DNA of 64,000 nucleotides from Minisyncoccota bacterium (GCA_963668425.1 OY764332.1:460336-524335), one strand, 5' to 3'; positions 49,164 to 61,819 are shown, counted from the first letter of the stretch. The notes: generated by a model not told the origin, from the sequence alone. Numbers and translations: made by a program.

Positions 49164-49249
49164 CATCTTCATTTTCTTGGAGTGTCCTTGATATTCATAT
49201 ATTTGCCTTGCAAAAGCAAGGCAAATTATTTTTTTGACCAAATTTGTTG

Positions 49250-49343
49250 TATGACCGCCGTGAAACGGCGGAAACTGACCGCTGTATGTTGCATGCACTG
49301 ACGTGCTGTTTTGTGTGACCCCACGGGGAATCGAACCCCCTGT
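49250..49343. repeat. Tandem duplicate of the tRNA-Glu 3-prime 24 nt plus about 70 bp of its downstream flank
   Basis: 49250..49343 is nearly identical to 49370..49460. The two copies are separated by a 28-bp hairpin (GTTTTTGgctctgaCAAAAAC). Confidence 0.8.
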
Positions 49344-49435
49344 TTTTGGCTCTGACAAAAACCTGGTTATATGACCGCCGTGAAACGGCGGAAACTGACC
49401 GCTGTATGTTGCATGCACTGACGTGCTGTTTTGTG

Positions 49436-49507
49436 TGACCCCACGGGGAATCGAACCCCGGTTTCCGCCGTGAAAGGGCGGCGTCCTAGCCGCTAGACGA
49501 TGGGGCC
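49436..49507 (-). tRNA. tRNA-Glu (anticodon UUC)
   Basis: Reverse complement folds GGCCCCA...CTTTCAC anticodon loop...TTCGATT T-loop...TGGGGTC-A. Confidence 0.8.
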
Positions 49508-49571
49508 AGTGAACAAAGTATAGTATATACTATACTTTGTTCATGTTCCACTTTGATTTTTTTGAAGGAGG

Positions 49572-50180
49572 GTGAAGATGTATCAGGATGTTGCTCTTAC
49601 TGATAGGCATCGTCGGTTGCTTTTGCGGAAGATGGGTGCCTCTGTAGAGTTGACAGGAGTTATCAATTCGGTTTTTGAGGCGTTGGTAGCGCATGCTTGT
49701 CCACGGTTTTCAGCTTTTGCAGCATTGACTGCTGCGATATCTGCTTTTAGGAAGAAGGATTTTGGTATCTTTCCTGATTATGAGGCGGTTTGGTTGCCGA
49801 CTGTTGTTCTTGATGATATTCATTGTGTACGATACCGTACTGATGTTATGCAGACCGTGTACGAAGCGATAGTGCCGGTGTGCATATCCGAATTGACCAG
49901 GCATTGTTTGCAAGCAGCGTTGCGAATACACGATCTGCAGATTTTGTTTTTATGTAATGGGAGTTTTTTAATCGGTGAGATAAAACGTATTCGTGCTTTT
50001 GGTGAGTCGTTTGAGCATGTTCGCCGTGAAAAAAGGTACTCAACGGCTGATACGAATAGGTGTCCGATACAGATGGTTGGTAGCTTTGACCGCATGCCGG
50101 ATCCCACTATTGACTTATGCCCAGAAGGAGCTGAGAAGCGATTATTTCATGATATTGAAAAAATGCTTCGTGTGCTTTAG
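49572..50180 (+). CDS. Hypothetical cytoplasmic protein
   Basis: 202 aa, RBS GGAGGG. A 17-bp perfect palindrome lies upstream at about 49512..49548. Confidence 0.45.
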   Translation: MKMYQDVALTDRHRRLLLRKMGASVELTGVINSVFEALVAHACPRFSAFAALTAAISAFRKKDFGIFPDYEAVWLPTVVLDDIHCVRYRTDVMQTVYEAIVPVCISELTRHCLQAALRIHDLQILFLCNGSFLIGEIKRIRAFGESFEHVRREKRYSTADTNRCPIQMVGSFDRMPDPTIDLCPEGAEKRLFHDIEKMLRVL

Positions 50181-50303
50181 GAGGTACTTGTTCTTTCTGG
50201 TTTGCGAGCTCGCTAACATGCATATTTTTGAGTGAAAAGATTAATTTTTTTCTTCTAATTTTTGAGGCGCGTTGGGATTACTTGTCCTGATGCGCCTTTT
50301 TTG

Positions 50304-50349
50304 TGTGCGAATGGTAGGACTCGAACCTACGACCTCTCCATTATCAGTG
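50304..50349. repeat. Direct repeat of the 3-prime 45 nt of tRNA-Ile; left boundary of a 2.3-kb islet
   Basis: tgtgcgaatggtaggactcgaacctacgacctctccattatcagtg is identical to the 3-prime half of the tRNA at 52601..52673. The upstream T-run is also shared. Confidence 0.8.
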
Positions 50350-50487
50350 AGTTCATTTGAACTATGTATAGGGATTGAGAGATTAGAAATAAAAGGTGGA
50401 TGAAGTGCGCAAGGTGTCTTTTTGCTTTAAATATGATTACTTGTATACTGTGAGTAGGGTACAAAAAGGTAAGTAAGGAGGAGTACA

Positions 50488-51189
50488 GTGATGTCTCATT
50501 TTTTTTCATTAAAGGTATTCTTGTTTCCGATAATTTTGTTTTGCTTGATCTTTGTTTTTGCATGCTCTCAAGATAATGAGGATGTGTGTATTATCACTCT
50601 TTCAGGTGGAGAACGATCAATTGCACTCCATTTTCCCTCTATAACCTTGAGGGCTTTCGACAATGGTGCCGATTTACTTCAAGATCTGGAAGAAGGAAGA
50701 TTTCTGGTAGATAAGAAATCGACACAAACCCTCTCTCATCCTGATTTTCCAACCTCAAAAGAAGAAACCAGAGTGAGTGTGGTTGTTCGTTCACTTCTTA
50801 GCATGGGGTTTCCTGCGAATGAGTTGATTTCTTACAAGGAAATTCTTGAAAAAGGAAAAGATCTTGGCCTTATGGTCTGTCCCCCTGATCTTGCTGCACA
50901 GCTCCGTTTACAGTTTACTGATCAGTCATCTCACGGATGGCTTGGTGATTTTCTCATTGCAACCGAGGAAATCAACTTGCACACCGATGGCATCCCAGGA
51001 ATATTTGCTGTTGTGCGGGATGATTCATCTCCTCATCCAGAGACCGGTATTGGATTACACCTCGTCTTCTATAATTTAGTGAGGGGAGGTCAAAATCAAT
51101 TGTTTGATCCTCGTAACTCCGAGAAAAATATCTATTGCGGGAAATTTGCTTTTATTGCTCCTGTAGATAATTTGATTTTTGAAGAGTAA
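50488..51189 (+). CDS. Lipoprotein, paralog of 25920..26633
   Basis: Signal plus Cys lipobox (LIFVFACSQ). Shares VCPPDLAAQLRLQFTDQ...DGIPGIFAVVRDDSSPHPETGIGL with the paralog. RBS AAGGAGG. Confidence 0.6.
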   Translation: MMSHFFSLKVFLFPIILFCLIFVFACSQDNEDVCIITLSGGERSIALHFPSITLRAFDNGADLLQDLEEGRFLVDKKSTQTLSHPDFPTSKEETRVSVVVRSLLSMGFPANELISYKEILEKGKDLGLMVCPPDLAAQLRLQFTDQSSHGWLGDFLIATEEINLHTDGIPGIFAVVRDDSSPHPETGIGLHLVFYNLVRGGQNQLFDPRNSEKNIYCGKFAFIAPVDNLIFEE

Positions 51190-51259
51190 TAAGCTTTGCG
51201 CGGCACTGATTTTGTGCCGCGCTTTTTATTCCCACTGTAATTTTTTACATGACACAATG

Positions 51260-51910
51260 TTATTTTGATGCCTGCAGAGATTTGAAGCTGTTTCTTGCAT
51301 TGCCTTTCGCCACATCCACTTTTAGTAATACCTCATTTTTATATGCCTTCTTTAATTGTGCAACTCTTTCATCATTGTTTGCTATACCCTTTAGATTCTC
51401 CAGACTTGATCCGGCATCTTGGCTAAGAACTTTCTTTCCATTTGGATGGGACATAAGTGTATGCCAATCTTTATCCTCGTAGTATCGTGTAGAAAGAAGG
51501 TAGGTTTCCCCGGGTTCAAGCAATCCTTCAGTATTGCCATCAGCGGGAGATAGTATGTCGCCATTGTGCACGACATGGAGTACGCCATTTTTATACCCGC
51601 CTAATTGATTTATGGTTACAGTATTCTGTAAGCTTCCTTTGACATTTCTTATTACTGCTACTTCAAATTGTGTATAAGGAACATCTATGGTGCTGAAAGT
51701 GCCACTTTGTCGAATCACCTTTCCAACAAAAATATTATGTGATGTGCCAACTAATATTTTATCATCTGTAAAATCAGCAACCCACTTAGGGTGTATTTCT
51801 TTTACAATAGGAAGCTTAATTGCATTTGTATGCAATCCAATGCTAATGCATAAAACAAAAAGCAATATGCTTCCAATTGCTATATGTATGGTGGTTAATT
51901 TTTTAGTCAT
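51260..51910 (-). CDS. Secreted or membrane-anchored hypothetical protein, full-length paralog of 25340..25843
   Basis: N-terminal TM/signal; shares LEPGETYLLSTRYYEDKDWHTLMSHPNG and KKAYKNEVLLKVDVAKGNARNSFKSL with the 25340 protein. Confidence 0.55.
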   Translation of the reverse strand: MTKKLTTIHIAIGSILLFVLCISIGLHTNAIKLPIVKEIHPKWVADFTDDKILVGTSHNIFVGKVIRQSGTFSTIDVPYTQFEVAVIRNVKGSLQNTVTINQLGGYKNGVLHVVHNGDILSPADGNTEGLLEPGETYLLSTRYYEDKDWHTLMSHPNGKKVLSQDAGSSLENLKGIANNDERVAQLKKAYKNEVLLKVDVAKGNARNSFKSLQASK

Positions 51911-51950
51911 AGTTGATTAAATGTTATTGAAATAATTTAAAGTAATGTGA

Positions 51951-52529
51951 TCAATCCCATAGGGTATTATTGTTATAGTCATATTTATCAATAGGCCCCA
52001 AAGAGGTTTTCAAGTTTACAGTATCATGCATAATATTGCCAGAATGGGAATGATCTAATCCTAGTGCGTGACCAAGTTCATGTAGAATAACATTTTTTAT
52101 TGTGGCATCTTGCCATGCCCAGGGAAGGATACTAAGGTCATCGTCAAGATAATGTTTATTCAGATACAGTTCATCACTACCGATCCAATCGTAATCATAT
52201 AGCCCCGCCCAATCTGCATCAGCGCTGTATACATCCCTTACAGTCAGATCCTGATAAGTCCAAAAAGTATCGGGAGCTATATTAATTTCTCCCAGCGCAT
52301 TCCATGTTGAAATCCCATAGCTCCATTGAGTTGAATATTTTGTTGATCCTCCCCACCGTATTTCATAGTCATCTACCGCGTTATTATCATTAAAATGTCC
52401 ATCAGTTGAGCCAGCGAAAACAAGAGTAACACCTAGTAAAGATGTGATTACCATTACCATTGTCAATACAAAAAGTATTGAGATTTTATTTTTCATAAAT
52501 GTAATTATATTATTAAGTAAATAACCCAC
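51951..52529 (-). CDS. Secreted matrixin-like (metzincin) zinc metalloprotease
   Basis: HELGHALGLDHSHSGNIMH is the HExxHxxGxxH metzincin signature plus a Met-turn. An N-terminal signal/TM is present. Confidence 0.7.
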   Translation of the reverse strand: MGYLLNNIITFMKNKISILFVLTMVMVITSLLGVTLVFAGSTDGHFNDNNAVDDYEIRWGGSTKYSTQWSYGISTWNALGEINIAPDTFWTYQDLTVRDVYSADADWAGLYDYDWIGSDELYLNKHYLDDDLSILPWAWQDATIKNVILHELGHALGLDHSHSGNIMHDTVNLKTSLGPIDKYDYNNNTLWD

Positions 52530-52600
52530 ACTTTCAGTTATTGTTAGTATACAGTCTTTTGAAGCGTATTAGAGATATTTGTTCCAGTGTGCTTTTTATG

Positions 52601-52673
52601 TGCGAATGGTAGGACTCGAACCTACGACCTCTCCATTATCAGTGGAGTGCTCTAACCACCTGAGCTACATTCG
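52601..52673 (-). tRNA. tRNA-Ile (anticodon GAU)
   Basis: Reverse complement folds GCGAATG...CTGATAA anticodon loop...TTCGAGT...CATTCGC-A. Confidence 0.8.
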
Positions 52674-52769
52674 CATATTGTGTATTATAGCGTAAAAGGT
52701 TTGTCTGTGTGGTTGGTAACACTACCTTGTTTTTTGGGCGTGTATGTTCTGTATAGTAGAATAGTACTA

Positions 52770-53150
52770 ATGGTTTCTGTTTTATATACACTGCGGGTTT
52801 TGTGTGTACTGAGTGTTTTTATGGTATGTGTTTTTTCTACTTGTTTTGTGTATGCCACTGAGTCAGTGCTTAGCATTACGGAGATTATGTATGATGCTGA
52901 GGGAGGGGATGATGGAAAAGAATTTGTAGAAGTTCTAAATACTGGGTCAGAAGAAATTGATATGACGACAGTGAAGTTTTTTGAACGAAATGATCGCCCT
53001 GATCGCCCCGGCGGATCTCTTGCGTCAGGTCAGGGAGGTGTTGTTTGCGACCGGGGGAGGTCGCGATTATTGTGGCAAAACCGGATCTCTTTTTGCAGCA
53101 TTATTCGTTTGATGGGGTTGTGCTTGATACCAGAAATTTTGCACTATTGA
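52770..53150 (+). CDS. N-terminal part (signal peptide plus start of a lamin-tail domain) of a surface protein interrupted by a frameshift near 53005..53045
   Basis: ITEIMYDAEGGDDGKEFVEVLNTGSEEIDM is an LTD core. The frame then runs into nonsense, and the LTD continues in another frame. Confidence 0.45.
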   Translation: MVSVLYTLRVLCVLSVFMVCVFSTCFVYATESVLSITEIMYDAEGGDDGKEFVEVLNTGSEEIDMTTVKFFERNDRPDRPGGSLASGQGGVVCDRGRSRLLWQNRISFCSIIRLMGLCLIPEILHY

Positions 53151-54256
53151 ATACGGGTGCGACTGTTTCGTTAGAGGTTGCCGGTCGCCTGCTACACAGT
53201 GTCGCATATACCACGGAGGACGGCGCGAAGGGTGATGGGAATTCATTACATATTAGGCAGGATGCTGTTATTTTTGCAGGCGAGCCGAATCCTGGGGTGG
53301 TGCAGGGTGTTGTTACGGATGACTCTGGTGCCAGTGAGCGTGATGAGGAGATTGGTGCTGTAGATACTCAGGTAGCGTTTGACACGCAGCAGAGAAATAC
53401 TGAAGAAGCAGAATCCTCTGTTTTTGTGCCCGATGCACAGCATTTGTCTGTCGGGGGAACAGAACCTCCTATTTTTGTATCTGATCCTTCGGTTGTTTTT
53501 TCTGCGTCAACAACTCGGTTTTCAGTTGTGCGTCAGGGGAATGGGCAGGAAGAGATGTATGGGTTGTGGAACTTCGGAGATGGTGACTACACCTATGGCA
53601 CTGTTGTGGAGCATGTGTATTTACACCCTGGTGCCTATATTGTTGTGTTTCAGGCGTTAGATGAGGATGGGTCTGAGGGCTTCGCATTACAAAAAGAGAT
53701 TCGTGTGTTGTTCCCGCAGGTCAGCATTGAGAGAATTGATGATGCATTTGTGCGGTTGCATAATCGTCATCCTTTTGTGCTTGATGTGTCAGGTTGGCGT
53801 ATTGAGTCACAGGGTACTGTTTTTGATTTTCCTATGAGGTCATTGGTGCCGAAGCAGAATAGTATTGTTGTTCCGTTTGCATTTGATGAGAGGCAGGATG
53901 TGTTCTTTGTGACTGCTGGAGGAGGGCAATTCAGCGGGACGTATGTTTCTCCTGATGTCAATAAAGGGCAGGAGGTGGATGTTGCTAAAGCGTTGGTAGC
54001 AGAGAGCCCTGTGTCAGCGAGACGACAAGTTTCCACAAGAAAGGATGTCGTGATTGAGCAGGAGCGAGTCAGTGGCGTGACTCATACTGATGTTTTTGTT
54101 GCGGATGTTGTTAATGATCAGGAAGAAAAACATACTGGTGTTGCTGTGCGGATGATTGCGGTGTGGGTTGTGTTGTTGATTGGCATTATGATTGTTGCAT
54201 TAGTGCCATTTATTTTTACGCGACGGGAAAAAGCAAAACGTTTTGATCATACGTAG
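53045..54256 (+). CDS. Continuation of the LTD-PKD-LTD surface protein (remainder of first LTD, a PKD domain, a second LTD-like domain, C-terminal TM anchor); frameshifted relative to 52770..53150
   Basis: Contains LRPGEVAIIVAKPDLF (LTD), WNFGDGDYTYGTVVEHVYLHPGAYIVVFQALDEDG (PKD) and a C-terminal VAVRMIAVWVVLLIGIMIVALVPFIF. Confidence 0.55.
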   Translation: MRPGEVAIIVAKPDLFLQHYSFDGVVLDTRNFALLNTGATVSLEVAGRLLHSVAYTTEDGAKGDGNSLHIRQDAVIFAGEPNPGVVQGVVTDDSGASERDEEIGAVDTQVAFDTQQRNTEEAESSVFVPDAQHLSVGGTEPPIFVSDPSVVFSASTTRFSVVRQGNGQEEMYGLWNFGDGDYTYGTVVEHVYLHPGAYIVVFQALDEDGSEGFALQKEIRVLFPQVSIERIDDAFVRLHNRHPFVLDVSGWRIESQGTVFDFPMRSLVPKQNSIVVPFAFDERQDVFFVTAGGGQFSGTYVSPDVNKGQEVDVAKALVAESPVSARRQVSTRKDVVIEQERVSGVTHTDVFVADVVNDQEEKHTGVAVRMIAVWVVLLIGIMIVALVPFIFTRREKAKRFDHT

Positions 54257-54405
54257 CGATGAAGTATTGGTGAAAATTTTGATGAATGGTGGTGGGAGAG
54301 TTTTCCACACATTGTAGTATGAAGATGTAAAAAGATGTATAGGGTTACCATAATATAAGTAGACCTGCAAAACAGCGGTCAATTATTAATGTAACCTTTC
54401 ATTTC

Positions 54406-54630
54406 ATGAAACGAAAACGACGAACCACAAAGAAGTCCGCCGCGAAGAAGACAGTGAAGAAGCGACGAAGCACAAAAAAGTCAGCTTCTAAGAAGACAAC
54501 GAAGAAGCGACGAAGCACAAAAAAGTCAGCTTCTAAGAAGACAACGAAGAAGCGACGAAGCACAAAGAGGCGGTCAGCAAAGAAGGTGACTAAAAAGATG
54601 ACAAAGCGTCGAAGTCGCCGTCGCAGGTAA
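54406..54630 (+). CDS. Lysine/arginine-rich repetitive basic protein (histone H1-like / nucleoid-associated candidate)
   Basis: 74 aa, more than 50% K/R, with KKRRSTKKSASKKTT repeats encoded by two perfect 45-bp DNA repeats. Confidence 0.45.
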   Translation: MKRKRRTTKKSAAKKTVKKRRSTKKSASKKTTKKRRSTKKSASKKTTKKRRSTKRRSAKKVTKKMTKRRSRRRR

Positions 54631-54798
54631 GAACTTTCCCTTTTTGTTTTAACAAGCAGGGGTATGTAAGAATGGAGATTTTCTATTTTTACGTGCCCCT
54701 GTTTTGTTTTTTGTTATTTATGTGAGTGACTTCTATCGTTGCGACAGGAGTCGTAGTGTTGGTGATGCCCCTTTCTTTTTATGCGGTATACTTGAGGT

Positions 54799-55404
54799 AT
54801 GGATAGAGAGCATTTTGAACGGACGTTGGTTATTATTAAGCCGGATGCGGTGCAACGAGTATTAGTTGGTGAGATTATTCGGCGTTTTGAGCGAGTTGGA
54901 TTAAAGATAGTCGCGATGAAAATGGTGCGGGTGGATGCTGTCACCGTTGAAAAGCATTATTCACTTGATCCGGATTGGAGGCGAAAAGCCGGTGAGAAGC
55001 AGTTGCGCAATGAAGTGGGAGATGTGGGTGTTGTTAGTGAAGGCGATGCAGTTGCGGCAGGTGAACTTATTTTAGGACACTTAAAGCGATTTATGACTGC
55101 TGGTCCAGTAGTGCCGTTGGTGTTGGAGGGGGCATATGCGGTTTCGTTGACACGAAAGTTAGTTGGCGGTACTGAGCCGTTTTCATCTGATGTTGGTACT
55201 ATTCGTGGAGATTTTGTATTGGATTCGTACGCGTTGGCAAATGATGCAAATCGCTCTATTCGAAATGCGATACATGCGTCTTCAAGTGTTGAGGAAGCCG
55301 AAAAAGAAGTTGCGTTGTGGTTTCAACCGGAAGAAATGCTTGTGTATGAGACCGCGTATGAACGTATATTATACGATGTAAATTTTGATAATGTTATTGA
55401 ATAG
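54799..55404 (+). CDS. ndk: Nucleoside diphosphate kinase with an internal insertion of about 50 aa
   Basis: ERTLVIIKPDAVQR...GLKIVAMK and NAIHASSSVEEAEKEVALWF (active-site His region). About 200 aa versus the typical 140. Confidence 0.7.
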   Translation: MDREHFERTLVIIKPDAVQRVLVGEIIRRFERVGLKIVAMKMVRVDAVTVEKHYSLDPDWRRKAGEKQLRNEVGDVGVVSEGDAVAAGELILGHLKRFMTAGPVVPLVLEGAYAVSLTRKLVGGTEPFSSDVGTIRGDFVLDSYALANDANRSIRNAIHASSSVEEAEKEVALWFQPEEMLVYETAYERILYDVNFDNVIE

Positions 55405-55774
55405 AAACAATTATACTCGTCGTATGCAAGCGTTGCTGTTTGCATTGTTTGCTGCGTCATTGATGGTTGTTCTGCATGGTGTTGGTACAGAGCGTGCCTG
55501 GTACTGGACGTATCAGTGGTTTGATATTATTACACACCTGCTTGGTGGTTTTTCGTTGGGTTTGCTTGCTGCATTGTTGTACGGGAAAACAAAGAGGTCT
55601 TTGATTCTTTCCCTTGCTACTGTGCTGCTATTGATTATTGGGTGGGAAGTATTTGAAGTGTTGTTTGTGGGTACAGCGGTAGGAGATGCATGGTATGGTG
55701 TAAAAACTATGAAGGATGTGGCGGTAGGTCTTGTTAGTGCGTATGTAGCAATAATGGTGTATGAGAAAGGGTAG
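55385..55774 (+). CDS. Small membrane protein (possibly VanZ-like)
   Basis: Four TM segments; WFDIITHLLGGFSLGLL resembles the VanZ-family motif. Weak evidence. Confidence 0.3.
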   Translation: MIMLLNRNNYTRRMQALLFALFAASLMVVLHGVGTERAWYWTYQWFDIITHLLGGFSLGLLAALLYGKTKRSLILSLATVLLLIIGWEVFEVLFVGTAVGDAWYGVKTMKDVAVGLVSAYVAIMVYEKG

Positions 55775-55795
55775 CCGTGTCTACAGCATTTTTTT

Positions 55796-56143
55796 CTATG
55801 CTTTAGTAGATTCGACGATGCGGTCAAATAGTATTTTCCTTTTTTGTGCAATTTCTGACAACATTTTTCGGTTGAGTAGTATACCTTTTTTCTTTAATGT
55901 ACCCATAAATGTGCTATATGAAAGGTTGTGGGGCTTTAGTGCCGCACTGATGCGGATATTCCAGAGCCGTCTAAAATCCCCTTTTTTCTTTTTGCGATGT
56001 GCGAATGCATGATTGCCAGCGTGAAGCCATGCTTCGCGTGCTTGCCTCTCCTTGGTGGAACGACCCCAGCGATACCCTTTTACTTTTTTTAGTAGGGATT
56101 TTCTGCTTTTTAGGGAAATTGTACCTCGTTTTACGCGAACCAT
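55796..56143 (-). CDS. rplT: 50S ribosomal protein L20
   Basis: MVRVKRGTISLKSRKSLLKKVKGYRWGRS...FRRLWNIRISAA matches L20. Confidence 0.85.
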   Translation of the reverse strand: MVRVKRGTISLKSRKSLLKKVKGYRWGRSTKERQAREAWLHAGNHAFAHRKKKKGDFRRLWNIRISAALKPHNLSYSTFMGTLKKKGILLNRKMLSEIAQKRKILFDRIVESTKA

Positions 56144-56163
56144 ATATTTTATAGTATATCCTC

Positions 56164-56349
56164 CTATGTAGAGAGTGTATATCGTTGTTGCATTTTGGTT
56201 GACATCTGTACTGACCTTTGTCGCTTTTTTGCTAGTTTTTTAGAACGAGAGTATTTCGCATTGAAATGACCGCGACCTTTACCACTGGCAAGAAGCACAC
56301 CTTTTTTTGTAACACGGATGCGTGAACGAGCTGCTTTGTTTGATTTCAT
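56164..56349 (-). CDS. rpmI: 50S ribosomal protein L35
   Basis: 61-aa basic protein between infC and rplT (canonical operon position); GKGRGHF is L35-like. Confidence 0.65.
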   Translation of the reverse strand: MKSNKAARSRIRVTKKGVLLASGKGRGHFNAKYSRSKKLAKKRQRSVQMSTKMQQRYTLST

Positions 56350-56462
56350 ATTGTGTAAAGTATATCATATAAAGTAGGGTTTGTGCAAAAGGGTGTGATG
56401 GTGTAGGATATATGATAAGGCCTATGGGGTACTAGTAACGATATTAGATATGGAGGAGTTGT

Positions 56463-57068
56463 ATGATGAGAGGGAGAGCTATTATAGTTTTTGGGCTTCC
56501 AGGGTCAGGGAAGAGAACACAGGTTGCCAATCTCTGTGTTGCTGTTGAAGAGCGTGGTCAGACGTGTCAGGTCATAGAGGTTGGCAGGTGTCTTCGTGCC
56601 ATAACGGCAACACAGCACTCTTCGTTTGTGGCAGAATCTCTTGCTGAAGTGATGAGTGAAGGGAGATTAGTGCCTGAAATATTTCCGTTGTATGTGTTGG
56701 CGAAGGAGGTGATTGAAACCCCTCTCGCAGATGTTGTTATTATGGATGGATTTGGTAGACGGCTTCCTGAATTGAAAATGGTGTTGCGTTTGTTTGGTAT
56801 GGTTAAGTATCAGATAGATGCTGTTCTTTTAGATATCAGCACAGATGAGGCACGTAAGCGGCTCTTTGACCGAGGTCGTGAGGATGATGTGCCCGAGGCT
56901 ATCACTCAAAGGATTTGTGCCTATCAAGGGAGTACCAAAGTGTCTCTTCGCTATCTTCGGCGTAACACAGAGCAAGTGAGTTTTTATAAAATTGATGGTG
57001 TAGGCACTGTTGATGAAGTGCACCAACGATTAATTGATTGCCTTATAAAAAATAAGACGCCTTACTGA
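56463..57068 (+). CDS. Adenylate-kinase-family paralog (divergent P-loop GLPGSGKRTQ)
   Basis: Aligns along its full length with the adk at 10640 (DGFGRR, RLFDRGREDD, IDGVGTVDEVHQRL), but the conserved GKGTQ is changed to GKRTQ. Confidence 0.6.
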   Translation: MMRGRAIIVFGLPGSGKRTQVANLCVAVEERGQTCQVIEVGRCLRAITATQHSSFVAESLAEVMSEGRLVPEIFPLYVLAKEVIETPLADVVIMDGFGRRLPELKMVLRLFGMVKYQIDAVLLDISTDEARKRLFDRGREDDVPEAITQRICAYQGSTKVSLRYLRRNTEQVSFYKIDGVGTVDEVHQRLIDCLIKNKTPY

Positions 57069-57075
57069 GGCGTCT

Positions 57076-57636
57076 TTATTTTTTGCTATCACCTGATTGG
57101 AGTGTGGTAGAAAAACCCTTTGGGCTTTTGCGGATTTCACCTATAATATTAATTTCACCTGGAATGGTTTTTATGAATGATGAGAGTTTCTTTTTTAGAA
57201 AATCCACATCCATACTTTTGTAGCGGCCAAATAGAAATAGATCTACCTGTACACGGCTGCCATTGTCTAGCCACTCGCGGATTTTTTTTGCCCGCATTTC
57301 AAGGATGTCGCCACTGGTACCTGGCTTGATTTGTGTATGTTTTGTACCTTCTTGTTTTTTACCTTTTTCTTTATCTTGATCTGCCCATTTCTTTTTTAGT
57401 TTATTTTGCTCATACTGATATTTGCCGTAGTCGGCAATGCGGACAACTGGTGGATTGGATTTTGCGGTTACTTCTACCAAGTCAAGATTTGCTTTGCGTG
57501 CCTGTGCCATAGCATCTTTTATTGAAACAACTCCTGCATTTCCTCCGGTGGCATCAACGAGGCGAACTTTGTATGCACGAATTGCCTCGTTGATACGAAC
57601 CTTTGGTTGTGCTAATTTTTTTGGTCCTCTACGAAT
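57076..57636 (-). CDS. infC: Translation initiation factor IF-3, probably using an AUU start codon
   Basis: ANLDLVEV...PPVVRIADYGKYQYE is IF3. An in-frame N-terminal extension (IRRGPKKLAQPKVRINEAIRAYKVRLVD) begins at an ATT at about 57636. Putative promoter TTGTCT-17-TATACT lies just upstream. Confidence 0.65.
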   Translation of the reverse strand: MRRGPKKLAQPKVRINEAIRAYKVRLVDATGGNAGVVSIKDAMAQARKANLDLVEVTAKSNPPVVRIADYGKYQYEQNKLKKKWADQDKEKGKKQEGTKHTQIKPGTSGDILEMRAKKIREWLDNGSRVQVDLFLFGRYKSMDVDFLKKKLSSFIKTIPGEINIIGEIRKSPKGFSTTLQSGDSKK

Positions 57637-57725
57637 ATGCAGGTAGTATATATCACGCTAGATGGGTAGACAAGGGCTATACACATGTTGCAAAAGTGTT
57701 GTGCGTACGGTAGTATACTAATTAT

Positions 57726-57899
57726 ATGTTACAGTATTTTGTCGGCGTTGCTGGAGAGTTTAAGCAAATTCGTTGGTTGTCAGCAAAAAGAGCCTTTTTG
57801 TTTTCTGTCATTGTTGTTGTTGTGTCGTTTTTGTTTGGGTTTGCTCTTGGTGCAGTAGATAGCTTGTTTGCGACATTACTTAAGAGTATTGTTATATAG
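57726..57899 (+). CDS. secE: Preprotein translocase subunit SecE (57 aa; below the ORF-track cutoff)
   Basis: MLQYFVGVAGEFKQIRWLSAKRAF followed by a single TM, immediately upstream of nusG (conserved secE-nusG order). Confidence 0.55.
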   Translation: MLQYFVGVAGEFKQIRWLSAKRAFLFSVIVVVVSFLFGFALGAVDSLFATLLKSIVI

Positions 57900-57911
57900 T
57901 ATACGTGTTAT

Positions 57912-58457
57912 ATGGAAGAGATACAGGAAGAAAAACAGCCAAAATGGTATGTGGTGAAAGTTCACTCAGGTTTTGAGCAGGTGGTGAGAATGAGTATTAT
58001 GCAGACCATAGAGTCGCTTGGGCTTGCAGATAAGATATTTGAAGTGGTAATACCGACTGAGAAACAGGTACGTATTAAGGGAGGTAAGCGAACGGAGAAA
58101 GAGGAGCGGATATATCCTGGTTATATTTTGGTATACATGATTATTGATGATCAGACGTGGTATGCGATTAACAATGTTGAGTATTCCTCAGGGTTTCTTG
58201 GTTCTCGGGCGCATGCTGAGTCATTATCGCAGGAGGAGGTTGATGTTATTAAGGAGCGAATGCGTGGTGATACGGTGCGGCATGAAACTGACCTTAAGGT
58301 GGGAGATGCTGTTAAAATTATTGATGGCCCATTTTCGGATCTGGGTGGCAAGGTTAGTGAGGTGGATATTGATAAAGGTCAAGCGACGGTGCTTATTCCT
58401 ATGTTTGGTAGAGAGACCCCAGTCAAACTGGATCTTTTCCAAATTCGCAGTGTGTAG
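57912..58457 (+). CDS. nusG: Transcription termination/antitermination factor NusG
   Basis: NGN domain (WYVVKVHSGFEQ) and KOW domain (VGDAVKIIDGPFSDLGGKV). Confidence 0.85.
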   Translation: MEEIQEEKQPKWYVVKVHSGFEQVVRMSIMQTIESLGLADKIFEVVIPTEKQVRIKGGKRTEKEERIYPGYILVYMIIDDQTWYAINNVEYSSGFLGSRAHAESLSQEEVDVIKERMRGDTVRHETDLKVGDAVKIIDGPFSDLGGKVSEVDIDKGQATVLIPMFGRETPVKLDLFQIRSV

Positions 58458-58478
58458 TACACTGTGTATGTTATTAGT

Positions 58479-58901
58479 ATGGCAAAACCAATCAAACAAG
58501 TTATCAAGCTGCAAATAGAGGCGGGCAAAGCAACGCCAGCGCCGCCTATCGGCACTGTGCTTGGTCCGGCGGGGATTAATATCGGTGATTTTTGTTCGCA
58601 GTTTAATGAACAGTCAAAAGAGCGGAGTGGGGAAATTGTACCGGTTGTGTTGACGATATATGAAGACAGGACATTCAGTTTTATAATGAAAACGCCACCG
58701 GCGTCGTTTTTGTTGCGTGAGGCAGCGGGGGTGGATAAAGGGTCTGGGCAAAATCTTGTGAAAAAGGCGGGTAAGGTTAGTGCGTCTGCAGTGCGTGAGA
58801 TTGCGGAGCGAAAAATGGAGGATTTGAATGCTCGAGATGTGGAGGCAGCGATGGAGATTGTGCGAGGGACGGCACGGTCTATGGGGATAGAGGTGGTATA
58901 A
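58479..58901 (+). CDS. rplK: 50S ribosomal protein L11
   Basis: MAKPIKQVIKLQIEAGKATPAPPIGTVLGPAGINI is the L11 N-terminus. Confidence 0.85.
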   Translation: MAKPIKQVIKLQIEAGKATPAPPIGTVLGPAGINIGDFCSQFNEQSKERSGEIVPVVLTIYEDRTFSFIMKTPPASFLLREAAGVDKGSGQNLVKKAGKVSASAVREIAERKMEDLNARDVEAAMEIVRGTARSMGIEVV

Positions 58902-58917
58902 TGGGACTGGTGGGCGT

Positions 58918-59496
58918 ATGTATATAATTAATATGAGCAAGGTGTATATAATTAGTGGGATATTACTATTTGTAATTCTTTTCGTTGTGCTGATGTACAA
59001 TGGGCTGGTTCGTATGCGCAATCGGCAAGAGGAGGCATGGTCTGATATTGATGTGCAATTGAAACGACGGTATGATCTGATACCGAATTTGGTGAGTACT
59101 GTGAAGGGGTATGCGAAACATGAGCAGGAGACATTGCGAAACGTAACTGAGATGCGGACTCGTGCGCTTGCGGCAGATGGGGCAAAAGAGAAGGGAGAGG
59201 CGGAAAACATGTTGAGCGGTGCATTAAAAACTATTTTTGCGGTTGCTGAAAATTATCCTGATTTGAAGGCGAGTGAAAACTTTGTTGAGTTGCAGCGAGA
59301 ACTGAGTGATACCGAGAATAAAATTCAGTCCGCGCGTCGTTTTTATAACAACACGGTGCAGGATTTAAATACTGCGGTGCAGGTGTTTCCAAAGAATATC
59401 ATTGCGAACATGTTTGGCTTTAAGGAGGAAGAGTTTTTTGAACTTGCTGAGGAAGAGAAAGAGAAGGCAGGTGATCCGGTTGAGGTGCAGTTTTAA
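58918..59496 (+). CDS. lemA: LemA-family membrane protein
   Basis: N-terminal TM and the LemA signature WSDIDVQLKRRYDLIPNLV...NYPDLKASENF. Confidence 0.75.
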   Translation: MYIINMSKVYIISGILLFVILFVVLMYNGLVRMRNRQEEAWSDIDVQLKRRYDLIPNLVSTVKGYAKHEQETLRNVTEMRTRALAADGAKEKGEAENMLSGALKTIFAVAENYPDLKASENFVELQRELSDTENKIQSARRFYNNTVQDLNTAVQVFPKNIIANMFGFKEEEFFELAEEEKEKAGDPVEVQF

Positions 59497-59511
59497 TACT
59501 AAGCGTGTGAT

Positions 59512-60444
59512 ATGGCTTCGTTGTACGCAGAACAAGGAAAGAATGTTCGGCAGACATTTTTCTTAATGTCACTTTTTTTGGTGCTTGTTATTGGTGTTGG
59601 TTGGTTGGCATCAGTTTACTTTGGATCGCCGGGTATTTTGTATATTGTAACGCTGATAGCGATTCTGATTAACGTTTTTGCCTACTGGCATTCTGATAGC
59701 ATTGCTGTTCGTTTGACGCGTGCTCGGGAAATTTCCCGAGATGAATATTTTGACTACTGGAATGCGGTGGAAAATCTTTGTATTAGCATTGGCGCGCCGA
59801 TGCCGAAACTGTACGTCATCAATGACACTTCTCCTAATGCGTTTGCTACCGGTCGGAGTCCGAAGCATTCTGCCATTGTTGTAACAAAAGGGTTGCTTGA
59901 TGTGATGGATAATGTGGAGTTGGAAGGGGTGTTGGCGCATGAGCTTGCGCATATACAAAATCGGGATACTCTTTTGATGACTTCTGTGGTGGTGTTGTTT
60001 GGTTTCGTGGTGATACTGCTTGATATGTTGTTGCATGTTATGGCATTTGGAGGTGATGATGATGATGGTGGCAGTCCGTTGATGCTTCTTATTGTTGTCG
60101 CTGCTTATTTTGTGATGCCATTGCTGTTGACCTTGATTCGTCTTGCAGTTTCACGGAAGCGGGAGTTTCTTGCTGATGCGACTGCTGGAGTGTACACCAG
60201 ACACCCTGAAGGACTTGCTTCTGCGCTGGAGAAAATTGGCAAGATACATCAGCCGATGCGGCATACTAGCTCTGCAACTGCACATCTTTTTATTTCTGAT
60301 CCGTTTGCTTCGTATGCTGATAGTTCAAATGATGGTGGTATGCATCGTCGGCCTAGGCGACGACTTGGCAGGAGGTTTGCTCGACTTTTTGACACTCATC
60401 CGCCGATAGTAGAACGGGTTAGTGCATTGTGTGGTAAAAAGTAA
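59512..60444 (+). CDS. htpX: Zinc metalloprotease HtpX (M48 family)
   Basis: HELAHIQNRD zinc motif and four TM segments. Confidence 0.8.
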   Translation: MASLYAEQGKNVRQTFFLMSLFLVLVIGVGWLASVYFGSPGILYIVTLIAILINVFAYWHSDSIAVRLTRAREISRDEYFDYWNAVENLCISIGAPMPKLYVINDTSPNAFATGRSPKHSAIVVTKGLLDVMDNVELEGVLAHELAHIQNRDTLLMTSVVVLFGFVVILLDMLLHVMAFGGDDDDGGSPLMLLIVVAAYFVMPLLLTLIRLAVSRKREFLADATAGVYTRHPEGLASALEKIGKIHQPMRHTSSATAHLFISDPFASYADSSNDGGMHRRPRRRLGRRFARLFDTHPPIVERVSALCGKK

Positions 60445-60483
60445 TTATTGTGTTTTGTTTTAGTATGGTATACATGAATTGTT

Positions 60484-60555
60484 GGGTCTATAGTTTAATT
60501 GGTAAAACAGCGGTCTCCAAAACCGCCGTTTCAGGTTCAAGTCCTGATGGACCCG
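60484..60555 (+). tRNA. tRNA-Trp (anticodon CCA)
   Basis: Cloverleaf with anticodon loop CTCCAAA and T-loop TTCAAGT. Confidence 0.75.
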
Positions 60556-60639
60556 CCTCTTTGCTCTATGCCTGCCGTGTTATTTTTCGCTGTTTTGGAG
60601 ACCGCACGCGGTCTCGCCATTAGTCAGCTTCGCTAAACG

Positions 60640-60715
60640 CTCGCAACGCCACCGTTTCAGGAACAAGATCTGATGGACCCGCCTCTTTGCTCTATGCCTG
60701 TCGTGTTATTTTTTG
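60640..60715. repeat. Degenerate duplicate of the tRNA-Trp 3-prime portion plus about 37 bp of downstream flank
   Basis: ccaccgtttcaggaacaagatctgatggacccgcctctttgctctatgcctgtcgtgttatttttt matches aaccgccgtttcaggttcaagtcctgatggacccgcctctttgctctatgcctgccgtgttattttt. Confidence 0.7.
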
Positions 60716-61610
60716 TCGTTTGTATGTAGTGTCAAGGTCTTGATGGAGTTGACCTACTTGGTGTTCTTGGTACCAATGGGCTTCTGGGTAGCGGCGGAGC
60801 CAATTTTCTTGTCTTTTGGCGTAAGCGAATATAGCATTGAGGAGGTTTGCCTTTGTTTCTTCAGGCGAGATATGTTGTGTAAGCATGGCTGCTATGTGTC
60901 TGCATTCTAATCCCATGCGAGAAAACCATACTTCTTCCACGCCTTGCTTGAGCAATGTTTTGATCTCTTCGGCCATTGTGTCAAATCGAATGTCCAATCG
61001 TTTTGCTATGCGTTCTCGTAGGTGTGGTCTGCTGTGTTTGATGCCGATCATTATGTAGTTGTACCGTTTCATTCTTTTTTGCATTGGGAATACACCGAGT
61101 TCTCGTATGATTTCAAGTGCGCGGATAAGTCGTCTGGGATTTTGTATATCTATCCTGTCGTAGGCATCGTGATCTTTTTTTTTGAGTTCTTGTTGCAGTT
61201 CAGTCAACTCTTTTTGCTCCATTGTTTTTCTGTAGGCAGGATTTGTCGGTACCTTTGCAGTTGTACCACTGAAGAGTAGGGCATCAATATAGAAACCAGA
61301 GCCACCGGCGATAATCGGTAGGCGTGCGCGGCTGTGTATTGCTTTTATGTGTGGCGTTGCCTCGTCGGCAAACTGGTGTGCGCTGTACTCTTTGCCTGGG
61401 TTGATGATGTCTAGCATATGGTGTGGGACGTCGCACATCTCTGATTTGGTGATTTTTCCTGTTGTCGCATCTAAGTGACGGTATACCTGTCGTGAATCGG
61501 CAGAGATGACCTCGCCGTTGTATCGTCGTGCTAGGTCAACTGCGAGATCGCTTTTGCCACTGGCAGTTGTGCCTACGATGACGAGGAGAGGTGGGTGAGA
61601 TTGCTCCATA
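60692..61610 (-). CDS. miaA: tRNA dimethylallyltransferase MiaA
   Basis: P-loop VIVGTTASGKSDLA and the MiaA core. The real start is the ATG at 61610. The 68-aa extension in the ORF track reads through tRNA-Leu sequence. Confidence 0.8.
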
Positions 61611-61674
61611 GTGCCGAAGGAGGGACTTGAACCCTCACTCCCGAAGGAACGCGATTTTGAGTCGCGCGCGTCTG
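61608..61674. repeat. Partial duplicate of tRNA-Leu(CAA): 62 nt of its 3-prime portion including the complete anticodon arm, plus CATAG. It abuts the miaA start codon
   Basis: Identical to 61733..61799 of the intact tRNA region. The duplicated CATAG supplies the miaA ATG. Confidence 0.8.
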
Positions 61675-61737
61675 CCCGTGCCGTCAATCTTTGATTGGCG
61701 CTGACTATCAGACGCCACTGTGGCGGAATTATCATAG

Positions 61738-61819
61738 TGCCGAAGGAGGGACTTGAACCCTCACTCCCGAAGGAACGCGATTTTGAGTCGCGCGCGTCTG
61801 CCAATTCCGCCACTTCGGC
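61738..61819 (-). tRNA. tRNA-Leu (anticodon CAA), long variable arm
   Basis: Reverse complement folds GCCGAAG...CTCAAAA anticodon loop...variable arm...TTCAAGT...CTTCGGC-A. Confidence 0.75.

Follow-up and report, generated by a model that had tools for sequence, protein, structure and literature searches.

Why should four tRNA genes lying close together each be followed by a partial copy of their own 3′ end? The window, a 64,000-nt stretch of DNA from a Kaiserbacteria/Paceibacterota-like CPR bacterium, raises this question. Its initial annotation offered two answers: a history of tRNA-targeting integrative elements, or a recurrent local duplication mechanism. The answer that we favour, with moderate confidence, is that two phenomena are mixed here. 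The tRNA-Ile copy belongs to an inserted islet, whereas the copies at tRNA-Glu, tRNA-Trp and tRNA-Leu(CAA) belong to inherited tandem repeat units that carry a selected hairpin.

Four partial tRNA copies in the window

ARAGORN returned nine tRNA calls across the whole window, including a Leu fragment at 61611-61695 on the minus strand. This fragment gave no match to the Rfam tRNA model even at E<=1 and is thus a spurious call, which leaves eight real tRNAs, the number originally counted. A repeat search recovered all four partial duplicates within 1-6 nt of where they had been placed. As described before, the copies are all found on the 3′ side of the intact gene and share its orientation.

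tRNA-Glu pair: 49246-49339 versus 49366-49459; 94 nt (25 nt tRNA, 69 nt flank), 99% identity, spacing 120
tRNA-Ile pair: 50298-50349 versus 52593-52644; 52 nt (45 nt tRNA, 7 nt flank), 98% identity, spacing 2295
tRNA-Trp pair: 60518-60595 versus 60644-60721; 78 nt, 86% identity, spacing 126
tRNA-Leu pair: 61607-61686 versus 61733-61812; 80 nt (66 identical tRNA nt, CATAG after both copies), 95% identity, spacing 126

These values agree closely with the initial annotation, which had reported a Glu duplicate of 24 nt plus 70 bp of flank, a 45-nt Ile duplicate 2.3 kb away, a degenerate Trp duplicate and a 62-nt Leu duplicate with CATAG. The blastn-short E-values of the self-copies (3e-9 for Glu, 4e-21 for Ile, 8e-4 for Trp and 1e-33 for Leu) exclude a chance origin. 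Compared with other tRNA loci, the pattern stands out: a tally from blastn-short output found a nearby partial self-copy for only one (in L132) of about 126 tRNAs in loci outside the clade.

None of the fragments matched the Rfam tRNA model even at E<=1. They lack the 5′ strand of the acceptor stem and do not qualify as functional tRNA genes. A scan with 4227 Rfam models gave matches limited to tRNA and tRNA-like models, solely at the true tRNAs, and the repeat units thus correspond to no known RNA family. A CRISPR-like array was rejected, since whole units including their trailers are identical within an array and no differing spacers occur.

An inserted islet at tRNA-Ile

The tRNA-Ile locus is a classical insertion, and its copy is the only one of the four that marks foreign DNA.

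52600-52674, minus strand: intact tRNA-Ile(GAU) (ARAGORN, Rfam tRNA model)
52593-52644, minus strand: att-type repeat adjoining the islet, 45 nt of the tRNA-Ile 3′ end plus 7 nt of flank (repeat search)
50350-52592, no strand assigned: inserted islet of 2.24 kb with three ORFs (empty site in relatives, composition, Pfam, PHROGs)
51951-52529, minus strand: islet ORF, metzincin-like
51260-51910, minus strand: islet ORF
50488-51189, plus strand: islet ORF
50298-50349, minus strand: displaced original tRNA-Ile 3′ end (45 nt, from the anticodon loop) with its original flank and terminator

Two relatives, L170 and L171, preserve the empty site. Positions 50282-50349 of the window align to the real tRNA-Ile 3′ end and flank of L170 (92.6%) and L171 (98%), where the gene runs straight into the flank found behind the fragment in the window. 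Because tRNA-Ile is joined directly to that flank in both, 50350-52592 is an insertion with an att-type duplication. Its composition deviates as well: between 50 and 52 kb the GC content is 0.388 and the GC skew 0.06, compared with about 0.43-0.47 and 0.2-0.35 nearby. The repeat begins at the anticodon loop, and a 14-nt palindrome (50350-50363) abuts the displaced tRNA 3′ end. No integrase or recombinase was found among the three ORFs, for which Pfam and PHROGs yielded just the one metzincin-like match.

We propose that the islet entered the 3′ part of the gene via site-specific recombination, with a crossover at or near the anticodon loop. The tRNA would have been completed again by the arriving DNA, with the former 3′ 45 nt and flank displaced by 2.3 kb. 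The integrase may since have been lost, or may never have been carried. In relatives, the tRNA cluster is an insertion hotspot, with restriction-modification, OLD/UvrD, DUF3800 and IS genes lying between the same tRNAs.

Tandem units at tRNA-Glu, tRNA-Trp and tRNA-Leu(CAA)

The other three repeats are not private scars of this genome. A search of relatives for the same fragments revealed homologous Glu, Trp and Leu units at the same tRNAs in related species. Each unit consists, in order, of a tRNA 3′ part, a trailer, a hairpin and conserved non-tRNA sequence; the hairpin 5′ arm repeats, inverted, 11-15 nt from within the same tRNA. The initial annotation overlooked both the conservation of the non-tRNA part and its construction from an inverted tRNA copy.

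The Glu unit is laid out as follows.

49435-49507, minus strand: intact tRNA-Glu(UUC) (ARAGORN, Rfam tRNA 61.9 bits); 49435-49459, its final 25 nt, serve as copy 1 of repeat segment A
49246-49459, minus strand: Glu repeat, period 120 (repeat search, 94 nt, 99%)
49375-49395, minus strand: hairpin H, GTTTCCGCCGT-TTC-ACGGCGG; second copy at 49255-49275
49340-49365, minus strand: hairpin I, CAGGTTTTTGTC-AGA-GCCAAAAACAG, the only sequence between the two repeat copies
49315-49339, minus strand: partial tRNA-Glu copy A′ (T arm and acceptor 3′ strand), 25 nt, 100% identical to the tRNA

In the sense of the tRNA, the order is A (25 nt, T arm and acceptor 3′ strand), s (a 39-nt trailer), H with linker, I, A′, s′ and H′. 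Hairpin H is a near-copy of the tRNA-Glu anticodon arm, and its 5′ arm forms an 11-nt antisense match to tRNA positions 37-47. The same H sequence is found in L170 and L171, which also keep hairpin I except for changes in the loop and at one stem position. Between species, the stretch from H through the linker to I is identical at 52-53 of 56 positions, and trailer s at 25-30 of 48-49. L170 has one extra unit (period 127) and L171 three (period 128, 100% identical).

The Trp unit lies on the opposite strand.

60484-60557, plus strand: intact tRNA-Trp(CCA), converging on miaA (ARAGORN, Rfam tRNA model)
60557-60591, plus strand: trailer, copy 1
60592-60615, plus strand: hairpin H, GTTTTGGAGACCGC-ACG-CGGTCTC
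60616-60643, plus strand: non-tRNA segment b, GCCATTAGTCAGCTTCGCTAAACGCTCG
60644-60718, plus strand: degenerate tRNA-Trp 3′ 39 nt (60644-60682) and trailer copy 2 (60683-60718) (repeat search)

Here, 14 nt in the 5′ arm of H are antisense to tRNA-Trp positions 27-40. The unit is present in L161 (two full copies and one truncated, period 125), L163 and L166, and a 26-nt stretch including H is invariant between the window, all three L161 copies, L163 and L166. The non-tRNA part as a whole is identical at 53-55 of 59-60 positions between species. In the window, the T loop of the fragment has changed from TTCAAGT to AACAAGA, and trailer copy 2 now contains the last 8 codons and stop of miaA, a C-terminal extension of that gene.

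The Leu unit sits between tRNA-Leu and miaA.

61737-61819, minus strand: intact tRNA-Leu(CAA), same strand as miaA and directly upstream (ARAGORN, Rfam tRNA model)
61713-61737, minus strand: 25-mer CTATGATAATTCCGCCACAGTGGCG, with the first ATG (61733-61735) and hairpin H (AATTCCGCCAC-A-GTGGCG)
61674-61712, minus strand: non-tRNA segment b, TCTGATAGTCAGC, hairpin CAATC-AAA-GATTG, then ACGGCACGGGC
61607-61673, minus strand: tRNA-Leu copy from position 22 to the 3′ end plus CTATG, identical to 61733-61799
60692-61609, minus strand: miaA, tRNA dimethylallyltransferase (Pfam IPPT 4e-57; ORF 60692-61813)

In the Leu hairpin H, 11 nt of the 5′ arm are antisense to tRNA-Leu positions 8-18. The 25-mer is invariant in the window, L001/L081 and L002, with one A inserted in L163. 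The antisense arm follows the tRNA at position 17 (T17/C17): AATTCC accompanies tRNA GGAATT, and AGTTCC accompanies GGAACT. Thus, in L172, whose tRNA has C17, the arm reads AGTTCCGCCAC. The last part of segment b resembles a tRNA D arm, and its hairpin shows a compensatory change in L002, from CAATC/GATTG to CAGCC/GGCTG. The b parts of Leu and Trp look alike (CTGATAATCAGC), a likeness that the covariance model does not confirm; model R1 matches Leu-type units only. The Leu(CAA) unit occurs in L001/L081, L002, L163 and L172, with a period of 185 nt in the last. In L172, a more distant relative, tRNA-Leu(UAA) is also followed by at least 2.6 identical 125-nt units with the same hairpin and scaffold, and the antisense match there (13 nt) is specific to that isoacceptor.

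The annotated miaA start is the ATG at 61607-61609, in the segment with the tRNA-Leu copy. Reading upstream from there, no stop codon interrupts the frame within the Leu unit until the first ATG is reached, 42 codons away. The unit is in frame in the window, L001 and L163 (in L163 via two compensating indels), and in L002 a stop comes 1 nt before the miaA ATG. In relatives that lack the unit, 2 nt separate tRNA-Leu from the miaA start: L161, L162, L164, L166, L167 and L173 have tRNA-Leu, CT (or a near variant, e.g. CTGT in L173) and the miaA ATG, a clean loss. In our reading, the unit has been wedged between the tRNA and miaA, and the genomes that have it keep it in frame or translationally coupled. 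This points to translation from the first AUG of a transcript that has been cleaved at the 3′ end of the tRNA. The earlier proposal that tRNA-like fragments enter downstream transcripts would be apt for miaA, whose predicted 5′ region includes the Leu unit in frame. A tRNA-mimic autoregulatory leader of the thrS-operator type was considered for miaA and rejected, since L001 and L163 have a disrupted anticodon stem and the mimic is thus not conserved.

Across genomes, the number of extra copies varies from 0 to 3, with periods of 120-132 nt. TRF reports arrays of period 125 with 3.1 copies in L161 and of period 128 with 3.4 copies in L171; the window has about 1.6-2 copies of each unit, head-to-tail. 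L161 also contains a 110-nt array (2.8 copies) with no tRNA link and a plain 158-nt duplication of the promoter, tRNA-Leu and the miaA 5′ end. The hairpins and adjoining non-tRNA parts evolve much more slowly than neutral sites: between-species identity is 84-95% for the non-tRNA unit parts, 51-64% for the trailers and 46-71% for miaA third codon positions. Within a genome, copies are alike even in the fast-evolving trailer, 5, 38 and 69 nt of which fall within the identity block of the short units, and only 26-55 nt of non-repeated sequence separates the Glu, Trp and Leu copies. How far the tRNA-like parts have decayed differs between genomes, some of which keep them equal to the parent tRNA. 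For Leu, the fragment is identical to the tRNA at 66/66 positions in the window, at 88% in L001, and is decayed in L163; in L002, a T-stem variant is found in both the tRNA and its fragment. A terminator scan with a simple consensus did not call the H hairpins. L002, L161 and L172 have U-rich tails after them, the window does not, and U tracts are poor in several genomes. L172 has a related hairpin with a clean T run after tRNA-Leu(UAG).

Origin of the units and comparison with known systems

Local duplication, as first proposed, is the better fit for Glu, Trp and Leu in view of the homologous units, varying copy number, duplicated trailers and 26-55-nt gaps. It does not fit as four recent events in this genome. 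We hypothesise that unequal recombination or slippage between the direct repeats adds and removes units, that gene conversion from the tRNA gene refreshes them, and that ectopic conversion may carry them between similar tRNA-Leu genes. Selection would keep the hairpin as an RNA element of the tRNA 3′ trailer, most likely a terminator or processing hairpin, with the tRNA-like pieces as by-products. This RNA role is putative. The units are dispensable, since they are missing at orthologous loci of close relatives. Three observations sit awkwardly with this reading. Plain tandem duplication leaves the a-b-a layout of the Leu unit unaccounted for, with no local source of b in the unit-free state, and the reading as a whole accounts neither for the length of about 125 nt common to three unrelated units nor for the inverted own-tRNA copy in each.

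Alternatively, all four copies could be scars of tRNA-targeting elements, the short units being attL/attR after interior deletion and the hairpin and b being attP arms of one element family. The Ile islet is a true insertion, further islets adjoin tRNA-Met (L161) and tRNA-Arg (L173), and the fragments begin at typical crossover sites (the anticodon loop for Ile, Trp and Arg, the T stem for Glu and Met). Variable cargo directly follows the arrays, in L161 and L163 from inside the T loop of the last Trp unit. Islands with scattered partial tRNAs are known, namely tycheposons, degraded islands with leftover partial tRNAs (bioRxiv 10.1101/2020.12.28.424599), and archaeal integrating elements (PMC9897764). 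However, no integrase was found in about 15 related loci or the window region. The identity block is not limited to the tRNA core and only 26-55 nt lie between the copies, which speaks against att scars at the short units. The 5-69 nt of trailer in the block are the same within a genome and differ between genomes, which indicates duplication in place. Moreover, array ends are ragged, with no single precise junction, and dead scars would not be expected to be 84-95% conserved. Exact-match scans of IMG/VR with four unit sequences, an insensitive method, gave only two chance matches in unrelated high-GC contigs. We therefore regard this explanation as unlikely for the set: integration holds for tRNA-Ile, and the units at Glu, Trp and Leu fit local duplication better.

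Neutral minisatellite-type duplication through replication slippage, with conservation an appearance produced by concerted evolution, seems to us distinctly improbable. The arrays are clean by TRF, and the unlinked 110-nt array and 158-nt duplication in L161 speak for such a process. Concerted evolution, however, homogenises sequences within a genome; it cannot fix them between species whose trailers and synonymous sites have diverged, and neutrality does not fit the compensatory changes or the antisense arm that co-varies with the tRNA.

A very improbable alternative is that units are built anew each time from the local tRNA by an active templated process, for example through strand switching or snap-back synthesis with the tRNA gene or its transcript as template. 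The constant match between the inverted arm and its own tRNA would follow from it. In line with this, the arm adjoins a direct copy of the same tRNA segment in 3/3 unit types, the match distinguishes Leu(CAA) from Leu(UAA) in L172, and units are similar in length but different in content. Against it, no reverse transcriptase or HUH enzyme was found near any locus, the Leu(CAA) period in L172 is 185 nt, and private features common to orthologous units across species argue for descent rather than re-creation. Collapsed or expanded repeats in a metagenome-assembled genome are scarcely credible as a cause: the Glu copies, 99% identical and merely 120 nt apart, would suit such an artefact, but the Trp copy has diverged by 14% and homologous units recur in independent assemblies (NCBI MAGs, ENA long contigs, a JGI metagenome) from different studies and platforms.

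Compared with tRNA-targeted genomic islands, this tRNA cluster is likewise an insertion hotspot, and the ARAGORN miscall of the Leu fragment is the exact annotation error, tRNA gene fragments called as tRNAs, given for archaeal integrating elements (PMC9897764). The Ile locus resembles att-site duplication in its direct repeats of a tRNA 3′ part around compositionally deviant foreign DNA, with an empty site in relatives, but differs in having no integrase. The Glu, Trp and Leu copies depart from that model through their 26-55-nt spacing, duplicated trailer, head-to-tail arrays and conservation across species.

Three-quarter tRNA external guide sequences, archaeal split tRNA genes and the box C/D intron of archaeal pre-tRNA-Trp share features with the units, namely a tRNA copy without its 5′ strand and a stretch antisense to the tRNA-Trp anticodon region. 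The units differ in that their organism is a bacterium, there is no partner 5′ half, and C/D-like boxes lack conservation (neither the window nor L161 has CUGA).

tRNA punctuation and t-elements are features of organelle transcripts, and functional 3′ external transcribed spacers occur in bacterial tRNA operons. The arrangement here is similar: with miaA 2 nt after tRNA-Leu in unit-free relatives, tRNA 3′ processing would create the mRNA 5′ end, and tRNA-like pieces are predicted to lie inside downstream transcripts. The fragments, however, are unlikely substrates of RNase P or RNase Z, because they lack the acceptor 5′ strand.

Minisatellites and tandem duplications evolve in concert through unequal crossing-over and gene conversion. 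The units resemble them in their 120-132-nt period, variable copy number, within-genome identity and clean loss that restores the single-copy state. They differ in that one end is anchored in a functional tRNA gene, purifying selection probably acts on part of the unit and each contains an inverted copy of its parent tRNA. Template-switch mutations create hairpins by inverted copying of nearby sequence during replication. The hairpin 5′ arm in each unit is likewise a perfect inverted copy of sequence 70-110 nt upstream, beside a direct copy, but here it is a conserved pattern that recurs at three or four tRNAs and changes along with its source.

Four tRNA-tail repeats in a CPR genome

The window comes from a CPR bacterium. 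Its nearest loci are L001, from a Candidatus Kaiserbacteria MAG whose NDK is 78% identical, and L002, from a complete Paceibacterota chromosome. No exact-sequence match to the MiaA or NDK of the window is on record. A metagenome scan with the single MiaA protein returned no relatives; with an alignment as the query, relatives were recovered.

The initial annotation held that four of eight tRNA genes are followed by a partial duplicate of their own 3' end. A repeat search recovered all four pairs near the positions first reported, and every copy lies 3' of its gene and in the same orientation. ARAGORN makes nine tRNA calls in the window, of which one, 61611-61695(-), falls on the Leu fragment. 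With the Rfam tRNA model, this fragment gives no match even at E<=1, leaving eight true tRNAs.

tRNA-tail repeat pairs in the window
Glu pair: spacing 120; 94 nt, 99% identity
Ile pair: spacing 2295; 52 nt, 98% identity
Trp pair: spacing 126; 78 nt, 86% identity
Leu pair: spacing 126; 80 nt, 95% identity

When set against other tRNA loci, such self-copies proved to be restricted to a few places. Among 149 tRNAs in 161 sequences (1.84 Mb), they were found at the four window loci, in three relatives at the orthologous Leu locus, and in a single distant CPR locus, L132. In L132, the 5' 24 nt of tRNA-Leu(CAA) recur 125 nt upstream (357-380 versus 482-566); this self-copy is a 5' and not a 3' fragment.

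The window holds further repeats and unusual features:

27120-29110: near-perfect long tandem repeat (333 nt x 6.0, 99%) inside a large 2015-aa ORF, 26830-32877(-)
41781-42846: near-perfect long tandem repeat (369 nt x 2.9, 100%) inside a large VirD4/TraG-like ORF, 40059-43379(+)
43565-47065(+): isoleucyl-tRNA synthetase with an inserted histidine-phosphatase (His_Phos_1) domain at residues 507-660; same architecture in L170 and L171
47780-47879 and 48429-48528: 100-nt direct repeat (85% identity, 649 nt apart) in the variable region from recO to tRNA-Glu, as if the region upstream of two small ORFs had been duplicated
54406-54630(+): 45-nt tandem repeat just upstream of ndk, encoding a lysine/arginine-rich small protein; also L001 9685-9819 and L002 9666-9831, with copy number varying between species

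All 2-kb bins across positions 1-64000 show positive GC skew, with a maximum of 0.40 and dips at 26-30 kb and in the tRNA-Ile islet described below. As most genes also lie on the plus strand, the window falls within one replichore.

The tRNA-Ile islet and its surroundings

In the loci of two closer relatives (L170 and L171), which were anchored on RecO, tRNA-Ile directly abuts the flank that in the window follows the fragment. Window positions 50282-50349 and 52593-52800 align to one and the same place in L170, and likewise in L171. Since both loci are contiguous at tRNA-Ile, the intervening 50350-52592 is a 2.24-kb insertion. Judged by these alignments, the tRNA-Ile repeat marks a real, ordinary insertion. 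Nowhere else in the region are GC content (0.388) and GC skew as low as in the islet. It contains three ORFs, of which one is metzincin-like and the others fall into no Pfam or PHROGs family; no integrase was found among the three. The repeat starts in the anticodon loop, a common crossover place for tRNA-targeting integrases. A perfect 14-nt palindrome (50350-50363; AGTTCAAATGAACT in the tRNA sense) adjoins the 5' edge of the displaced tRNA-Ile fragment, and its right arm is loosely similar to tRNA-Ile positions 25-30.

L161 and L173 have comparable small integrase-free islets, at tRNA-Met and tRNA-Arg, respectively. Between the same tRNAs, relatives carry restriction-modification, OLD/UvrD, DUF3800 and IS genes, and this cargo adjoins unit arrays. 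Its defence-type part comprises EcoRI-like and HindVP restriction-modification systems, OLD-TOPRIM and UvrD pairs (Gabija-like) and DUF3800 (L162 3250-8680; L163 6-7777; L164 734-3521; L171 5073-7182). The tRNA cluster is thus a variable hotspot. The variable region yielded no PHROGs matches. Together with its empty sites, the Ile islet provides a clean example of an insertion in CPR bacteria, where few mobile elements are described.

Leu, Trp and Glu units in related genomes

A search for the same fragments in relatives revealed homologous Leu, Trp and Glu units at several of their loci. The Leu unit is a 126-132-nt piece between tRNA-Leu(CAA) and miaA, common to the window, L001/L081, L002 and L163. 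MiaA is only 80-86% identical among these genomes, with 46-71% identity at third codon positions of miaA; by this comparison, the Leu repeat is shared and old. Equally close relatives (L161, L162, L164, L166, L167 and L173) are free of the unit and show tRNA-Leu, a few bases (CT in most) and the miaA ATG. If the unit-free state is ancestral, the non-tRNA part in the window clade could possibly stem from ectopic conversion from another tRNA-Leu array.

In the window, the Leu fragment matches the tRNA at 66/66 positions; in L002 the two are also identical, and a private T-stem variant is found in both tRNA-Leu and its fragment. The fragment is 88% identical in L001 and clearly decayed in L163. 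This pattern appears to fit occasional gene conversion from the tRNA gene and not selection on the tRNA-like part. Across species, the 62 non-tRNA nucleotides keep 84-94% identity; they contain an invariant 25-mer and show a compensatory change in the hairpin (CAATC/GATTG to CAGCC/GGCTG). Comparing the Leu spacer with the miaA 5' coding sequence, as a test of pure tandem duplication, gave weak similarity by eye. A different duplication occupies the same locus in L161 (9837-10077), where a 158-nt tandem copy reaches from the promoter across the entire tRNA-Leu(CAA) gene to nt 45 of miaA; there, the decayed copy is the upstream one.

The unit also bears on the start of miaA. Immediately past the true tRNA-Leu, the window has a first ATG that lies 126 nt upstream of the annotated miaA ATG, in frame and with no stop between. 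L001 has GTA at the usual place and no start codon, so that translation must begin upstream. Two indels (+1 and +2) bring the upstream frame of L163 back into phase with miaA, and in L002 the upstream frame ends at a TAA 1 nt before the miaA ATG. An open frame has a chance probability of about 0.2 per sequence, which makes the frame evidence moderate. These observations are consistent with miaA being translated from the first AUG of an mRNA with a 5' end that would be made by tRNA 3' processing. In many distant CPR loci, tRNA-Leu(CAA) ends 5-40 nt before miaA, often with a converging tRNA-Trp(CCA) on the far side; both tRNAs are presumably MiaA substrates, given the specificity of the enzyme. 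This order is found in the window (60484-61819) and in L085, L089, L093, L095, L096, L104, L109, L110, L118 and L132, and the distance from tRNA-Leu to the miaA start is only 2 nt in the close relatives of the window. Read from the sequence, this arrangement implies co-transcription, with a miaA mRNA that is almost leaderless. It ties miaA tightly to the gene of one expected substrate, tRNA-Leu(CAA), and presents a candidate case of mRNA 5' ends derived from tRNA processing.

The Trp unit consists of trailer, hairpin, segment b and tRNA 3' part. One copy is present in the window and one in L166, two full copies and a truncated one in L161 (period 125), and one truncated copy in L163; it is absent in L001, L002, L162, L172 and L173. 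Between species, 53-55 of 59-60 nt of its non-tRNA part are identical, and an invariant 26-nt stretch includes the hairpin. In the window, the second trailer copy is the source of the last 8 miaA codons and the stop. The window and L170 each have one Glu unit, with periods of 120 and 127, respectively, and L171 has three that are 100% identical, with a period of 128; between species, the Glu hairpins are identical at 52-53 of 56 positions. These comparisons place the hairpin parts of the Glu and Trp units under constraint. Trailers are identical within an array and 51-64% identical between species, the level of unrelated sequence, which indicates that units were duplicated in place and homogenised.

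Near the miaA 3' end, three relatives share a conserved stretch of about 100 nt between cargo genes and miaA (L161 11020-11140(-), L162 10990-11070(-), L163 11170-11290(-)). It reads GGGTCT.T.ACGGCGACCC...GGAATCTGCTTTCC...CGGCGAGA, looks like a structured RNA and begins with 9 nt of the tRNA-Trp 5' end. It has no Rfam match at the gathering score and is absent in the window.

The initial annotation had proposed tRNA-targeting integrative elements or recurrent local duplication. That proposal is supported in part: integration accounts for the tRNA-Ile repeat and probably does not extend to Glu, Trp and Leu as integration scars. Against reading the short units as integration (att) products, none of the related loci searched contains an integrase, and the duplicated trailer argues for duplication in place. 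Moreover, the array ends are ragged: arrays of L161 and L163 stop in the T loop and those of L170 and L171 inside the trailer, and in the window they end past the hairpin. IMG/VR, searched by exact match for a phage or attP origin, gave chance matches only and nothing relevant.

A tRNA-derived hairpin

Each of the three units has a hairpin matching its own tRNA: an internal tRNA segment recurs in perfect inverted form as the 5' arm, and the start of that segment recurs in direct orientation as the 3' arm.

Antisense matches between hairpin and parent tRNA
Leu hairpin: 11 nt, tRNA positions 8-18
Trp hairpin: 14 nt, tRNA positions 27-40
Glu hairpin: 11 nt, tRNA positions 37-47

At the sequence level, the decisive case for co-variation of the antisense arm with the tRNA is the more distant L172 (MiaA 69% identical). 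In tRNA-Leu(CAA) of L172, position 17 is C and not T; the arm reads AGTTCC instead of AATTCC, and the match extends to 15 nt. In the same genome, tRNA-Leu(UAA) is accompanied by at least 2.6 identical 125-nt units with the hairpin and scaffold of the Leu(CAA) unit, in which the tRNA part and the arm match the UAA tRNA. The 125-nt unit runs from about tRNA position 10 to the 3' end and continues with CTGTG and the hairpin; a U-rich tail and another hairpin complete it. ARAGORN labels one pseudo-copy tRNA-Val. A related hairpin with a clean T run also follows tRNA-Leu(UAG) in L172, without a pseudo-copy. Because of this occurrence, we favour a putative role of the hairpin as a terminator or 3'-processing element. 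A consensus terminator scan called none of the window hairpins.

The b parts of the Leu and Trp units share the 12-mer CTGATARTCAGC, found only at these units in about 2 Mb. A Leu covariance model did not detect the Trp and Glu units, and consensus folds of whole units gave local hairpins only and no convincing global structure. Outside the clade, with clade units set aside, a scan for antisense matches to the own tRNA gave no clear excess over upstream controls. Unit length stays near 125 nt despite different content; this rule is not strict, as the Leu(CAA) period in L172 is 185 nt. L161 also has a 110-nt tandem repeat unconnected with any tRNA, 2.8 copies in the intergenic region of LemA and L11 (14212-14515); in this clade, tandem repeats of about 110-130 nt are therefore not confined to tRNA flanks.

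Taken together, the Glu, Trp and Leu repeats represent a conserved, apparently undescribed kind of inherited, tRNA-anchored tandem unit, whose hairpin is tRNA-derived, co-varies with the tRNA and is probably kept by selection. A further, speculative step, which we regard as improbable, would make the hairpin a tRNA-specific sensor. Its 5' arm would pair either with its own 3' arm or with the parent-tRNA segment in the nascent transcript, and tRNA folding or maturation would choose between termination or processing and read-through. The units would then form a new tandem-duplicated class of tRNA-derived cis-regulatory RNA, and for tRNA-Leu(CAA) the downstream gene is miaA, whose enzyme modifies that same tRNA. 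MiaA autoregulation through an anticodon-arm mimic was rejected, as the stem is decayed in L001 and L163. The antisense stretch and an apparent tRNA-loop insert had also prompted three other readings: a box C/D guide RNA, an intron-containing pseudo-tRNA and a split tRNA. These were rejected, as the boxes are not conserved and the L172 arrays reveal the supposed insert to be native 3' flank between two repeat copies.

The units are thus a candidate for an uncharacterised conserved element in the tRNA 3' trailers of an uncultured lineage. They have consequences for island prediction from tRNA fragments and for tRNA annotation in CPR genomes, where ARAGORN calls two pseudo-copies tRNA-Leu and tRNA-Val. 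Partial tRNA copies beside tRNA genes are routinely taken as integration scars; three of the four described here appear to be of another kind.
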